This document shows, in pieces, positions 47,843 through 63,164 of a stretch of DNA of 64,000 nt. The notes under the pieces were generated by a model. That model was not told the DNA's origin and did no database searches. It saw only the letters and a list, made by a program, of their open reading frames with translations. This DNA is from a virus (lineage: Duplodnaviria > Caudoviricetes), in the IMG/VR virus record IMGVR_UViG_3300029288_000086, positions 64,001 to 128,000 of that record, one strand, 5' to 3'. Made by a program: the position numbers and the translations under genes. Position 1 is the stretch's first letter; every line of letters begins with the position of its first letter.

Positions 47843-48900
47843 ATAAAAAAGTGCCCTGTGGAGTGGCATTAATCATTAATATGTTATGTGCCACTTGACG
47901 GGGCATAATTTTTCATTGATTATTTTTATTTTAACTCTAGTAATATATTAATAAAAAAAATTAAATATGTCTGATGTATAAAATAGGTTATTGTATAATT
48001 GCAGTAACCTATTTTTATTTAATTTTTATTATTTTTGTCGAGAAATAGGAATAAGTGATTCGATAATAGCAGTTATCGTGTTGTTATTATGTGTGATATA
48101 TAAATGTAGGAATATGTGATTATATTTTTTTGATTATTCATATTTACAATATTAGTTATTATTATGTGTGATATATATATTCGATTATGATTTCGATATT
48201 ATTTTAGTATATTTTATTATTATTTTTATTTATTTTTTTAAAGTGTGTGAATAGATGTGCTACACCGACTTTTGATAGTATTTATGATGCTGAATTTGTA
48301 AAATAGGGGGTACTTATTATTATAATTGATATTGATTATTATTTATAATCACTATTGAATGCCTGGTAATGATGCTGATAGTGCATGAAATGAAGATTTT
48401 ATTAGGATATTTGTTCTATAATGAGTGTTTTAATAACTTTCGGGTAACATGCAATTTACGAGAGAAGTATTATATACCTTACACTATGACTAACCCTATA
48501 TACATATAGTATAATATACTTTACTTAATGTATAATAAACTTTACATAATAAGACTAACCCTATCATATTATCATACAATGATACAATAACCTTAACCCT
48601 ATAACCTTAATCCATCCATCCTACTACATACCCTATTTATACTACTTCATAGCCATTTTAATCACTCTCATATACTATTATATATAAAGTATCATATTAT
48701 CAATACAAATTGAAATTCTATCATAAATAATCAATCGTTTAATAAGCAAGTAAGTAAACTTAAAACAAAAAAGAGTAGGAACCAACCTACTCTTTTTATT
48801 TCACCAATTACACTTATCTATTCAATAGATAGAATATTATAAAAATTGATTACCTGATTCAAAGCCAGATTATAATACCTGTATAAAATAATGCCACAAG
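47843..48900. other. About 1-kb non-coding AT-rich region with compositional switch and short direct repeats (origin or terminus candidate)
   Basis: No credible ORF; T/G-rich left half, A/C-rich right half; TAACCCTAT x3; several hairpins. Confidence 0.5.
48768..48797. terminator. Bidirectional terminator
   Basis: AAAAAGAGTAGG / CCTACTCTTTTT. Confidence 0.7.
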
Positions 48901-48964
48901 TATAATAATTATTACTCTTAATACTATTTGGCCAACCGTGGGTTTATTCATTTTTTTAATTCCT

Positions 48965-49174
48965 TTATCCGGCTTCTTGATTAATCAATCTCTCGTAATA
49001 ATCAACAGGAAAGTTAATAATGAATTGAGATATTCGAGACTCACGATTAAGTGCGCATAATTGATAATTATTAAAATTGTTAATTCGACGTTCTCTATTT
49101 TGTTTTTCTTGCTCTAGTTGTTTTTCGATCTTATCCATGTATTCCGTCATTTTATTCATTTTATTTGCTCCCAT
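48965..49174 (-). CDS. Hypothetical early protein
   Basis: Small ORF in leftward cluster. Confidence 0.45.
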   Translation of the reverse strand: MGANKMNKMTEYMDKIEKQLEQEKQNRERRINNFNNYQLCALNRESRISQFIINFPVDYYERLINQEAG

Positions 49175-49546
49175 TTATTAGATTAAATTAACTAGATATT
49201 TTGTTCATAATATTCAGAAAACAATTGTTGCCATTGTGCAAGTGTTAAATTACTTGCAATTACTTTGCCGTTTTGAATTACTTCACCGTTTACGATTCCG
49301 ACACATCCCGAAAATTCTATTGATAAAATCTCACATGCGTTTAATTCCTTTGCATATTCATTTTTTGTCATATTATCCGTCCTTTGTTTTTTCTTTTATT
49401 ATAATAATTAAACAATAAAAAGTCAAATTAAAGAGTATAAAGTAATGCAAAATTTTGTATAAAATTCTCAAAATTGAATATAAAAAATCCTATTCTTAAG
49501 AAAATAGAAATTTTAAGAATAGGATGATTTTTATAATCTTGAAATA

Positions 49547-49843
49547 TTACTTTTTGGGTTCCAATTTTACCACCTGATGACGGCAAAATACTGCACTAGT
49601 GGTTGTATATTTTCTGATGATCACTTCGCCGTTTTCGTTTTCTTTTTGAGTCGATCCGATTACAGGAATCTTTATACCATGTTGGCCTTTTTTAACACAA
49701 TAACCTTGAACAAGCCATCTTTTATATGTAAAAACATCTTGGTATGGGATACAACCGCACGGTAAAGCATTAGCCACTGTTAAGGCGTTCGTGATGGAGA
49801 AGCGGTTAAATTGTGTAGCTTGTTCTTTGGTCATAGTAACCAT
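49547..49843 (-). CDS. ArdC N-terminal (ssDNA-binding) domain-like protein
   Basis: TYKRW..QG..VKKGQHG..I......VF...QV motif. Confidence 0.7.
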   Translation of the reverse strand: MVTMTKEQATQFNRFSITNALTVANALPCGCIPYQDVFTYKRWLVQGYCVKKGQHGIKIPVIGSTQKENENGEVIIRKYTTTSAVFCRHQVVKLEPKK

Positions 49844-49850
49844 GATTTTT

Positions 49851-50030
49851 TTATCCTCTTAAATTTTCAATATAACTTTTAGCTAAACTTTCCGCTATTG
49901 TATAGGATGGCAAGCCATCAGTTACATGAGTTAAAACAGTTTCACCAGTGGAAAGTTTACCAAATATTTTGAATCCCCAAATTGATCTCCCGTTAACTTT
50001 CTGGTATGTAATCTCAATGTTATGTCCCAT
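49851..50030 (-). CDS. Hypothetical early protein
   Basis: ATG 50030 behind GGAGG; promoter TTGACA-16-TATAAT at 50096-50069. Confidence 0.55.
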   Translation of the reverse strand: MGHNIEITYQKVNGRSIWGFKIFGKLSTGETVLTHVTDGLPSYTIAESLAKSYIENLRG

Positions 50031-50534
50031 TTTTTTATCCTCCAAAAATTAGTTAATCAGATAATCTCATTATAACCATTATATTTAAATTGTCAAGGGT
50101 TTTTAAATATTCGCTTTAAATTGGTATTTATACTCATTTTACCCTGTTTTTATCGCTTCTACATTATATGCAAAATTCTCACTATAAAAATAATCTTTTT
50201 AACCTAAAATATGCCATTTTTAGCAATTTTAAGCATTATAGATATAAAGTATCATAATCATTGTACAAAACGATTACAGCGATTCCCACGAACCGATTTA
50301 AGATTGTTCTAATTTTCGTTAAGGTAATGTTCTATTTTTTGAATATAAAAATGGTTATTTTAGAAAATAATCTTAATAAAAGTTAAATATAATTTTGGTA
50401 TTAATAAGATTGAATTTTTAGTAAAATTTTAAGGTTGTTCTATAACATTTTTTAAGGTAAAATTCTACTATGTTCTATAATTTTGTGATATAATGATTTA
50501 TAAGTTAAATTCTATTTAAAAAAGGATAAAGAGG

Positions 50535-61026: not shown

Positions 61027-61650
61027 ATGCACACACACGCAGAAATTTACTTAGAAAGCAAAGAAAATTGGCAAGAACAGGTTGAAGAAATTTTACAACC
61101 TTACGATGAAAACCTAGAAGTTCAAGAAGAAAAAGATGATGACGGTAATCTTTATTGGTGTAATCCTAACGGAATTTTTGATTGGTATGAAATTGGTGGT
61201 AGATGGACTGGATCACACGGTAATTATAATCCAGAAGAAGATATTAGAAATTATGAGAAGTGTAGACTATGTGGTGGCACAGGATTACGCAATGATGAAA
61301 TTGGGTTAAAACACAGACAAGAAAATCCTGATTACAAATGTAACGAATGCTATCACTATAACAGAGATACCGGAGTGGATGAACCAGGATTCTTTGGTGC
61401 CGGAATGGCTTTGAAATGGCCTACGGACTGGTTCAATCATGAAAGTAACATTATTCCGGTTGAAGAAATTGACGAAAAATTAGATTGTGGCACTATCTTT
61501 TTCAATGGTGATTATTGGGAAAATGAAGAATGGGATTCTGACAATAAAGAATTCAAACCAAACAAAGATTTTAACGGAAACGTGAAAGAATTTTTGACTA
61601 AAAACGGCATTACTACCGGCTTTTTGGTAACAGTTGATTATCACTGGTAG
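61027..61650 (+). CDS. Acidic hypothetical protein with inserted DnaJ-like Zn motif
   Basis: NP....DWY.IGGRW, CRLCGGTG..CNEC, VTVDYH. Confidence 0.65.
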   Translation: MHTHAEIYLESKENWQEQVEEILQPYDENLEVQEEKDDDGNLYWCNPNGIFDWYEIGGRWTGSHGNYNPEEDIRNYEKCRLCGGTGLRNDEIGLKHRQENPDYKCNECYHYNRDTGVDEPGFFGAGMALKWPTDWFNHESNIIPVEEIDEKLDCGTIFFNGDYWENEEWDSDNKEFKPNKDFNGNVKEFLTKNGITTGFLVTVDYHW

Positions 61651-61719
61651 TACCACAATAAAACATCTATTTCATGGTGCTTAACAGATAATCATATTTG
61701 GACACGAAAGGATAATATA

Positions 61720-62385
61720 ATGAATAAAACAGAAGAAATTTTAAAAAGAGATTCTATTCAGGAAACTGAAAACTTATTAGGCAAAGATTACCATGATTTC
61801 AATGGCTCTGAAAATGCCTTGATGATGCTTAGTTTTATGGTAGACAATCAAGTAAAAGAAAATCATCTTAAATCAATTGGTGATACATGGTTTAATATGC
61901 CTTGGAGTGAATTCAAGAAAAAATTAGAAGACTATGGTTTTGTTCTTGGTTTGCAATATGATATTAAACATGACGATCAAATAGATGAAGTCGTCATTTA
62001 TTACCATAAAGAAAAAGGATTGGTAATTTTCGCTGATAGTTATTTTAACAAAAAAGACGTAAATGGTGGTGAATTATACGGTGAAATTCGTGCGAATAGT
62101 GAACAAGACAAACAAGATATCTGGCTGAACTTGTCTAGTGGTGGCATGAGTCATTATGATAATATGGTTTTTGAAACTAGCCATGATGTAAGAGAAGGCT
62201 TATTCTTTAAATTATCTAAATTAGAAACGTCCGGTAAATTTTTATCTCAATGGTTAAACAAAGACCGATTCTTGTATTTTGTTGATTACGTTGAAAATAA
62301 AGTTGAAGGTTATGATTATAAAAAACTTACTCGTGAAAAGATATTGAAATGCCCAAAAAAATTACAAGAAATTGTAGGGTTATAA
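61720..62385 (+). CDS. Hypothetical protein
   Basis: 221-aa ORF with SD, bounded by junction repeats. Confidence 0.65.
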   Translation: MNKTEEILKRDSIQETENLLGKDYHDFNGSENALMMLSFMVDNQVKENHLKSIGDTWFNMPWSEFKKKLEDYGFVLGLQYDIKHDDQIDEVVIYYHKEKGLVIFADSYFNKKDVNGGELYGEIRANSEQDKQDIWLNLSSGGMSHYDNMVFETSHDVREGLFFKLSKLETSGKFLSQWLNKDRFLYFVDYVENKVEGYDYKKLTREKILKCPKKLQEIVGL

Positions 62386-62436
62386 CTACCCCATGAAATT
62401 TCCATTTCATTAGACTTAACAGAAAGGATATAACAG

Positions 62437-62808
62437 ATGAGCGACTTCCCAAAAATAAAAATTCAAAACTCAGATAACCATTATGATGATCAATTTGAGA
62501 AAAGACCTTGCCAAAAAGTTAAACTAATAAGTTATAAAAGAAAAGATTGTGACAAATGGCATCGTCTAAATGGATTGATCTCTAACGTTTTGCATGAACG
62601 GTTTACTGTAATTTCTGCAACCGAGGGTGTTTATTGGAGCGAAGAACTGCACAGATATACCTCAAAACATCCAGAGAATGATAAAATGGTTCTCTATGCG
62701 GAATCGGCTAATAATAAATTCACGCAGGAAGACAAAATATATTTACAAGCAATACGCGATATTGTATCACAATCAATGGAGCCATTTTTCAATGCGCTAT
62801 ACAAATAA
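62437..62808 (+). CDS. Hypothetical protein
   Basis: SD, bounded by junction repeats. Confidence 0.6.
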   Translation: MSDFPKIKIQNSDNHYDDQFEKRPCQKVKLISYKRKDCDKWHRLNGLISNVLHERFTVISATEGVYWSEELHRYTSKHPENDKMVLYAESANNKFTQEDKIYLQAIRDIVSQSMEPFFNALYK

Positions 62809-62859
62809 CACCATGAAACAAGAATTTTATTCGGTTACTTAACAGAATAGGAGATATAA

Positions 62860-63120
62860 ATGAAAACTTACGAACCAGATTATAAAACGTTGAACCATCC
62901 AACCATAACAAAACTTGCTTTCCAAAAGTGTTGTGATTTAGGTTTAACAGAATTTGAAAAATGGGTTTTATTCGACTTTGATTATAGTGAATGGTTCGAT
63001 CAATTAGAATTCATTATGAGTGCGACAAAGGAACAACTCCAAGAACGTGTAATTTGGGAAGAAATTACTGACGAAAAAGGCAATCCTGTAACAGCCGAAT
63101 CGTGGGAATTGACCGCATGA
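62860..63120 (+). CDS. Hypothetical protein
   Basis: SD AGGAG; TGA stop supplied by the palindromic motif. Confidence 0.6.
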   Translation: MKTYEPDYKTLNHPTITKLAFQKCCDLGLTEFEKWVLFDFDYSEWFDQLEFIMSATKEQLQERVIWEEITDEKGNPVTAESWELTA

Positions 63121-63164
63121 AAACTAAGATTTCATGGACATATATAACAGAAAGGACAATTTGA

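Follow-up and report, generated by a model that had tools for sequence, protein, structure and literature searches.

Inverted arms arranged around a short centre of 6-8 bp represent the common architecture of the sites recognized by tyrosine recombinases, such as dif for Xer, loxP for Cre and FRT for FLP. The identity of the centre sets the partner of a site, and sites with differing centres do not cross-react. To our knowledge, the natural systems of this type comprise one or a few sites, and we know of no ordered array of some 90 sites provided with different centres. Acinetobacter plasmids possess pdif modules, i.e., gene modules which differ between replicons and are bounded by dif-like XerC/XerD sites of about 28 bp, and the cluster A mycobacteriophages possess stoperators, which consist of tens of short asymmetric sites located at gene boundaries and oriented with transcription. 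Similarly, the start-associated sequences of the cluster K mycobacteriophages are short sites occurring at gene boundaries (PMC3203893), and the T4-type phages contain the so-called PeSLs, made of a sigma-70 promoter and a terminator hairpin, with genes shuffled by homologous recombination (PMC2839356, PMC4122927). Among the SPbeta phages, MrpR/SroF (YopR) binds a box of 24-26 bp as a monomer and is devoid of the catalytic tyrosine (PMC10516654; bioRxiv 10.1101/2025.11.27.690993). The present analysis is devoted to a palindrome, ATGAAA-N6-TTTCAT, dispersed along a window of 64,000 nucleotides which corresponds to bases 64001-128000 of a linear viral record of 143,090 bp from IMG/VR (IMGVR_UViG_3300029288_000086), estimated 78% complete. 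With a probability of roughly 0.55, the palindromes would be joints for recombination in double-stranded DNA, with the register given by their spacer.

The products encoded in the window comprise a tape-measure protein, a portal, a terminase, an endolysin-like protein, a YonO-type RNA polymerase (PF05183) and a tyrosine-recombinase-fold protein. The polymerase gene (42654-45200, minus strand) specifies an 848-residue single-subunit enzyme with 38% identity to its counterpart in phage BUCT082, and because its closest cultured relatives occur among the Spbetaviruses and other phages of Bacillota, the phage is placed in the wider SPbeta-like group and is, judging from the sequence, a distant SPbeta-like siphovirus. 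A megablast search of the region against cultured phages gave no match, and a scan of bacterial genomes for prophage relatives yielded single chance hits only, so that no host is assignable. Relatives were obtained by a motif scan of viral contigs, namely G001 (complete, 160 kb, 94 copies of the palindrome), G002 (79 kb, 51 copies), G003 (17 copies) and G005 (24 copies), the phage holding the window being referred to as G000. G002, which is nearly the same phage as G001, was left out as an independent relative for this reason, and G003 showed no spacers in common in the spacer comparison. Further relatives were reached through the homologues of an early recombinase of G000. A metagenome scan based on the recombinase alignment, which relied on weak peptide patterns, returned distant integrases only, a 4.6-kb contig coding for a 50% identical recombinase displayed a single clear site, and the palindrome is not enriched in MT835481 (75 kb), which contains YomM-like and YonO-like genes. 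Gene calls were heuristic.

Position-specific spacers at gene junctions

An earlier sequence-only reading of the window had listed 19 copies of the palindrome, all of which are present, 17 with a spacer of 6 nt and the two others with a spacer of 5 nt (29560) or 7 nt (63117). The enrichment over background which it had suggested to check was found, with 8 exact copies in the window for 0.04 expected and 18 copies for 1.55 expected when up to one mismatch is allowed. Over the whole record, a spacer of 6 is found in 91 copies, 46 without mismatch and 45 with one, spacers of 4, 5, 7 or 8 nt being represented by 1-7 copies each, and the extended form beginning with CC and ending with GG occurs in 56 copies at up to 2 mismatches, compared to 1 in a backwards control. 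The position matrix was built on 83 copies from the plus-strand gene blocks, and the information content, which extends from -4 to +21, delineates a 26-bp dyad of the 10-6-10 type, CCCCATGAAA-N6-TTTCATGGGG. Together with the constant spacer, this dyad agrees with the core-site geometry of tyrosine recombinases that had been noticed from the letters. Within the spacer, the first base is almost never A, the last base is mostly A, and the four central bases are free. The commonest variant of the arm consists of a G to A change at position 3. Two half-site types, CCATGAAA and CAATAAAA, occur in G000, where the base preceding the arm is correlated with arm position 3 (odds ratio 3.8, p = 8e-4), and the minority type CAATAAAA resembles the SPbeta half-site. 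The two halves of the site vary independently of each other. That every copy carries a different spacer, as had been claimed, holds nearly, G000 containing 1 duplicate pair for 3.2 expected and G001 none for 2.7 expected, and these non-significant figures are about those of random 6-mers.

The first base of most copies falls in an interval extending from 4 nt before to 15 nt after the end of the upstream open reading frame, and these copies finish 10-45 nt ahead of the next start codon, just before the ribosome-binding site. According to our count, about 19 upstream reading frames, none of them in the window, stop at a TGA or TAA within the left arm, and both forms of the left arm retain such a stop codon. 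The copies crowd into the two plus-strand blocks that contain small early genes, and they are sparse in the structural block of the minus strand. Their location at gene ends rather than on promoters, also part of the initial description, is confirmed, and promoters are not enriched (102 promoter-like sites for 90.6 +/- 9.8 expected).

The comparison of G000 with G001, which share 87 of 264 proteins as homologues and a patchy nucleotide similarity of 64-93%, revealed 47 identical spacers, 46 of them arranged in one collinear chain. Reversed spacers gave 2 matches and reverse-complemented ones 0, and the longest chain reached at most 15 when the order was shuffled. Only 4 more collinear pairs are off by one base, which indicates that spacers are either kept exactly or replaced, unlike what neutral drift would produce. 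The arms of the same pairs differ at 27 of 552 positions, mostly by the G/A toggle, and the conservation of the spacers is no lower than that of the arms; hardly any sequence around the centres is conserved to this degree. Such a retention of a spacer at its own position in relatives would not be expected at random, unlike the mere diversity of the spacers. At 38 of the 47 shared junctions, neither neighbour gene is homologous at E < 1e-3 and the lengths of the neighbours are often very different; the lack of homology between very short proteins is weak evidence alone, and it is matched here by the divergence of the neighbours in length and in DNA. Identity between G000 and G001 drops to background about 5-10 nt to the left and 10-20 nt to the right of the dyad. 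Depending on the number of neighbours with a homologue in G001, none, one or two, the proportion of plus-strand junctions occupied by a site amounts to 42%, 30% and 14%, respectively.

These results bear on two claims made from the sequence. The unique spacers had been taken as favouring binding over recombination, and this argument is lost, the spacers being position-specific and conserved in order among relatives with differing neighbour genes. The second option then considered, of junctions for cassette exchange, gains from the collinear spacers, from the junctions lacking homologous neighbours and from the unrelated contents of the slots, a slot being the DNA comprised between two adjacent palindromes. 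Breakpoints in relatives, which were to be sought at the motif, are encountered there: the homology breaks at the edge of the palindrome in many pairs, with a crossover that may have fallen either inside or outside the site.

The relatives recovered by the early recombinase, with proteins 85, 72, 71 and 51% identical, originate from other samples and all possess the same arms. One ordered series of spacers (GCAACA, GTGTTC, CGACTG ... CAGATA, CGAAAA, CAAGAG) surrounds the recombinase gene, each phage showing a subset of it with few one-base variants, and the relative with 51% identity retains TGCCCG followed by CGCAAG. Slots delimited by the same two adjacent spacers usually display no blastn or tblastx similarity and differ in length, e.g., 216, 192 and 251 bp in different phages for the slot CGAAAA-CAAGAG, and 456, 350 and 231 bp for the slot TAAGGA-CCGGTA. 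Among the slots of the window, 4 of 10 share nothing with their G001 counterparts past a 43-nt leader, and the others share one gene located inside a larger slot.

Some other observations concern the variable regions of these relatives. In the most distant one (L186, 10917-11019), the palindromes with spacers GTTTGA and TGCCCG lie 85 bp apart and no gene occurs between them, the matching interval of G000 extending over 2.8 kb with five more joints; the interval of L186 looks like an emptied run of slots. TnpB/Cas12f-like (OrfB_IS605) genes reside inside the palindrome-rich variable region of relatives (L180, 20255-20921; L188, 981-2219), a GIY-YIG homing-endonuclease gene occupies the same type of region in L183, and several N6/N4 methyltransferase genes are distributed in the variable region of the relatives of the window phage.

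The same class of site is found in cultured Bacillus phages. When inverted hexamers were counted without any preset motif in SPbeta, BUCT082 and FADO, ATAAAA-N6-TTTTAT emerged as the single outlier in each of them, with 13 exact copies and 38 copies at up to one mismatch in SPbeta, 15 and 38 in BUCT082, and 30 and 39 in FADO, compared to 4 in a reversed control of the latter. The flanks of this motif, approximately CTRA...TYAG, provide stop codons on both strands, and the sites of SPbeta and BUCT082, the two phages considered for gene context, are located after a stop codon and ahead of the next ribosome-binding site. These two phages have 25 of 38 spacers in common in the same order, for 0 in a reversed control. 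Neither of the 200-bp flanks is similar in 8 of the pairs, and about 7 pairs associate one flank that is 81-100% identical with another that is unrelated, the break occurring at the edge of the palindrome. The methyltransferase gene mtbP of SPbeta (NC_001884, L199; 113663-115060) stands alone between two junction palindromes and has its stop codon inside the left arm of the second one. Some SPbeta copies carry a plain stem_loop annotation in the record, and a full-text literature search whose reach did not extend to the 1999 SPbeta genome paper found no paper describing the junction palindromes. Since SPbeta, BUCT082 and FADO all grow on Bacillus subtilis, the idea of exchange joints is open to ordinary genetics.

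Proposed gene exchange and the alternative explanations

If the palindromes are joints for gene exchange, their two 10-bp arms would constitute a symmetric binding site for a phage protein, and the 6-bp centre, specific to a gene junction, would serve as an address. Related phages, or a phage and a prophage, residing in one cell would exchange at joints with the same centre, in such a way that the DNA comprised between two joints is replaced and the order of the joints along the genome stays fixed. Owing to the differing centres within a genome, deletions of genes by recombination between its own joints would be avoided. The exchange would presumably depend on identical centres.

A tyrosine recombinase dimer is a possible catalyst, at less than even odds; it would suit the 10-6-10 layout of the site and the part assigned to its centre, and two proteins come into question. 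The YomM-like tyrosine-recombinase-fold protein of the window (14243-15238, minus strand, 331 residues), with matches to PF00589 and to PHROG integrases, is encoded next to the tape-measure gene. It shares 24% identity with YomM of SPbeta (E = 1e-13), which occupies the same position, as do YomM-like genes of BUCT082 and FADO, and it retains the conserved Arg, the HxxR box, a Trp (for His) and the Tyr nucleophile. The only candidate named from the letters of the window was this protein; its recombinase fold holds, it turned out to be a YomM homologue, and a second recombinase lies outside the window. This second protein, of 302 residues (genome 26867-27775), is encoded among early accessory genes, is closer to Xer, with XerA and XerD as best PDB matches, and contains all the catalytic motifs; it shows a faint similarity to YopP, and no similarity to YopR was found. 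G000 and G001 thus encode two PF00589 proteins each, with the catalytic residues present. YomM of SPbeta and BUCT082 falls below the Pfam threshold and was recognised by annotation and BLAST. Other partners were considered and rejected: a serine recombinase and RecT are both absent from G000 and G001, and a RAYT of the REP/BIME type (PF01797) is absent from G000, G001, G003 and G005.

Several points weigh against the proposal of exchange joints. A 207-residue gene conserved between G000 and G001 (93% protein and 91% DNA identity) resides in the slot GAACGA-CATCTA of the former and in the slot CATCTA-TTTCCA of the latter, so that a gene can change slot, which a strict, address-dependent double exchange does not allow. 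All the palindrome-bearing phages examined contain a YomM-like gene and at least one further gene of the PF00589 type, and neither type of recombinase is therefore singled out. As the arms stay constant down to 51% recombinase identity, no covariation between protein and site is visible, and this approach was discarded as uninformative for linking the two. The shared flanks of SPbeta and BUCT082 are so highly identical (84-100%) that the identity of the spacers requires no selection there, and at one junction of these phages the left flank is 90% identical and the spacer differs at two positions. The avoidance of duplicate spacers within a genome is a non-significant trend only. In addition, the evidence for the joints is comparative throughout, and the genomes of the ATGAAA lineage are all metagenomic assemblies, among which chimeras are possible. 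Finally, the relatives and SPbeta possess genes for a Sak4-like annealing protein and for a PD-(D/E)XK nuclease, SPbeta having in addition a Holliday-junction resolvase, and homologous recombination acting on 26 bp of identity could produce the same pattern.

This last point introduces the main rival, according to which the palindromes exist for another reason, as binding or structural elements, and the shuffling of genes results incidentally from homologous recombination, ordinary or relaxed, which would use the approximately 26 bp of identity with the help of the Sak4-like protein and the nuclease, or of the host RecA. Breaks could also arise at an extruded cruciform or by the action of a site-specific nuclease, and the centres would remain alike by the repeated re-sampling of junctions with cassettes drawn from a shared pool, which accounts for their conservation equally well. 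The location of the breakpoints at the outer edges of the palindromes or up to about 30 nt beyond, not visibly inside the spacer, the ability of genes to change slot, the set of recombination proteins and the precedent of the repeat-mediated shuffling at PeSLs are all in line with this explanation, which we nevertheless hold to be rather unlikely. It leaves unexplained the constant arms with their symmetry and strict 6-nt spacing, shared arms would favour out-of-register deletions, and the 46 joints nowhere depart from their order. Moreover, 26 bp are short for an efficient exchange, and the present sites are neither promoters nor terminators.

The other alternatives rely on regulation at the DNA or RNA level. 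A genome-wide operator or roadblock network, read at gene ends by a dimeric phage DNA-binding protein possibly of MrpR-like fold, was the option preferred in the sequence-only reading by analogy with MrpR, and a dimeric regulator on DNA was also our own first reading, then rated somewhat above even odds and dropped after the spacer-order test. The symmetric arms and the independent variation of the halves are those expected for a dimer on DNA, the sites occur between genes of early operons, two copies are fused to LexA-type boxes, and a recombinase-fold repressor is in use in SPbeta phages. However, collinear, position-specific spacers next to unrelated genes are not predicted by such a network, conserved genes have fewer sites between them, similarity searches returned no YopR-like protein, and both recombinase-fold proteins keep their catalytic residues. 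The SPBRE, i.e., the MrpR/SroF box, was re-derived from ten SPbeta promoters identified by ChAP-seq as approximately ACAAAWAATATGTATATAAT, a non-palindromic motif lying over the -10 region and bound by a monomer, and this difference excludes an identity of the palindrome with SPBRE. The operator network has consequently become distinctly improbable.

An RNA hairpin which, in the polycistronic early transcripts, would direct processing, stabilise 3' ends, terminate weakly or couple translation is more improbable still. The sites are transcribed, with a stop codon before them and a ribosome-binding site after them, the most stable copy reaches -9.2 kcal/mol on folding, and the stem_loop annotation of SPbeta points in the same direction. 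On the other side, no compensatory changes are visible, Watson-Crick pairs falling below shuffles at every flanking stem position tested, and the stem-breaking A.C variant of the left arm occurs in 24 copies, compared to 12 for the tolerated G.U mirror. When one half is a variant, folding of the copy yields 0 to -2.5 kcal/mol, values no more stable than those of shuffled sequences, the arms of SPbeta consist entirely of A/T, and the loops, which would be free to drift, are conserved by position. A search of Rfam gave no family match for the sites, and in a terminator scan no palindrome scored as a terminator, with no T-run or U-tail after the stem. The missing T-tail and the lack of promoter enrichment exclude an intrinsic terminator or a promoter-terminator of the PeSL type. 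The site thus looks like one that acts on duplex DNA rather than through RNA structure.

Individual sites and neighbouring motifs

The late region of the window contains few sites. The copy ACGAAA-tgttga-TTTCAT (2682-2699) belongs to the late minus-strand region and its spacer is kept at the syntenic place of G001 (2652). The intergenic copy ATGAAA-tcacga-TTTCAT (17973-17990), also in the late region, has no identical spacer in G001, and the degenerate copy ATAAAA-acacg-TTTCAT (29559-29577) can be read with a 5-nt spacer or with a 6-nt spacer and two mismatches. The copy ATAAAA-ttgcga-TTTCAT (37497-37514) adjoins a tRNA gene (37385-37465, minus strand) situated within the structural gene block, and its spacer is kept in G001 (35990), as are those of ATGAAA-tatccg-TTTCAT (39413-39430; G001 38452) and ATGAAA-tgaaga-TTTTAT (48385-48402; G001 49410).

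From there on, the sites follow each other at shorter intervals. The copy ATAAAA-ctctta-TTTCAT (51892-51909), with ATAGAACA located 7 nt upstream, has no partner in G001. The next two copies, ATAAAA-tactca-TTTCAT (52988-53005), with an RNA fold of 0 kcal/mol, and ATGAAA-tctatc-TTTCAT (53491-53508), share their spacers with G001 (55127 and 55485, respectively), and the slot that they delimit gave no blastn or tblastx match to the corresponding slot of G001. The spacer of ATGAAA-taacct-TTTCAT (55053-55070) also occurs in G001 (57732) and G005 (39336). Two consecutive copies, ATGAAA-taatcc-TTTTAT (57535-57552; same spacer at G001 61070) and ATGAAA-gagtgg-TTTCAT (58084-58101), are each fused to a perfect GAAC-N4-GTTC box, and the G001 site at 61769 is the same as the second of them across box, arms and spacer, the sequence farther out being unrelated. 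The copy ATGAAA-tgtcaa-TTTCAT (59235-59252), followed by CTTAACAG and a ribosome-binding site, has its spacer in G001 (62318) and G005 (43304), and the slot which it opens (59235-60652) is unrelated to that of G001. It ends with ATGAAA-cttttc-TTTCAT (60652-60669; G001 63571), after which a sigma-A-like promoter occurs (60683-60711). The spacer of ATAAAA-gaacga-TTTCAT (60967-60984), upstream of the 207-residue gene, is absent from G001. The copy ATAAAA-catcta-TTTCAT (61658-61675) shares its spacer and a leader of about 22 nt with G001 64756, with differing genes on both sides, and the spacer of ATGAAA-tttcca-TTTCAT (62393-62410) corresponds to G001 65446. The last two of the listed copies are ATGAAA-caagaa-TTTTAT (62813-62830), which has no partner in G001, and the variant ATGAAA-actaaga-TTTCAT (63117-63135), with its 7-nt spacer.

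Other motifs accompany the palindromes. Perfect GAAC-N4-GTTC boxes, of the Bacillus LexA/Cheo type, occur only at 57522-57533 and 58071-58082 in the 143-kb genome, both in the same register with respect to the palindrome (GTTC|CATGAAA) and upstream of the small genes 57593-57814 and 58143-58358, and G001 retains such a box at the joint with spacer GAGTGG. LexA controls the small antirepressor Sar of SPbeta-type phages, which makes the two small genes candidates for an SOS-controlled antirepressor. Copies of the heptamer TAGAACA and of its complement TGTTCTA are grouped where the right-hand early region begins (about 50300-58100), often 7 nt ahead of a palindrome and sometimes as close inverted pairs, e.g., at about 53026-53043, and TAGAACA may represent an operator set distinct from the palindromes. 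The heptamer TTAACAG is strongly strand-biased, with 33 forward and 11 reverse occurrences genome-wide, concentrated at about 50600-63600 and typically located 2-4 nt past a palindrome, ahead of the ribosome-binding site.

Comparison with known systems

The fast replacement of accessory genes in large phages whose genome order is kept belongs to the long-standing question of mosaicism, and in this respect the joints become visible as a defined 26-bp site, the centre of which behaves as a coordinate common to a phage lineage. If an enzyme reads the centres, the array would be a natural multi-site and address-specific recombination system, relevant to phage evolution as well as to genome engineering. 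If no enzyme does so, these sites remain unsurpassed to date as markers of mosaic breakpoints in this lineage. That SPbeta-like phages would possess a natural, addressed cassette exchange, in which a phage tyrosine recombinase operates on an ordered array of about 40-100 sites and at equivalent junctions only, is possible, and we put it forward with reserve.

Among the systems described to date, the MrpR/SroF-SPBRE couple is similar in that a recombinase-fold protein reads a repeat dispersed in a genome of this phage lineage. It differs in its number and design, about 10 non-palindromic copies over promoters for SPBRE and about 90 palindromic copies at gene ends for the junction sites, and also in its reader, the YopR-family repressor lacking the catalytic tyrosine which both recombinase-fold proteins of G000 keep. 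Since SPbeta holds SPBRE together with about 38 junction palindromes, these are two separate systems. The PeSLs resemble the present sites as short repeated intergenic motifs of the variable regions of a large phage genome, located at the boundaries of insertions, deletions and replacements; the present sites, in contrast, are devoid of promoter and terminator, follow a strict 10-6-10 dyad and own, for each copy, a centre kept in order. Stoperators and start-associated sequences are asymmetric and have no position-conserved variable centre, whereas the palindrome is two-fold symmetric.

Integrons offer a likeness of another kind, in that small promoterless genes form arrays, with an imperfect palindrome, attC, behind each gene, and a tyrosine recombinase is present. 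However, attC accompanies its cassette and is recognised in the form of a folded single strand, whereas in these phages the same gene can be found with other centres and the same centres around unrelated genes. Similarly, the pdif modules, around which distinct XerC and XerD arms alternate in orientation, move between plasmids with their sites and need the host XerC/D, whereas the present centres belong to positions and the carrier is a phage. The sites of tyrosine recombinases have in common with the palindromes the inverted arms, of about 10-13 bp in these systems and 10 bp here, around a centre of 6-8 bp, here 6 bp, and Xer-like recombinases with their catalytic residues are encoded in the phages; the difference resides in the gene that has changed slot between G000 and G001, and catalysis is here a prediction drawn from sequence comparison. 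Should that prediction be true, the array would be the natural counterpart of the engineered exchange between heterospecific lox/FRT sites, allowing slot-by-slot swaps without loss of gene order.

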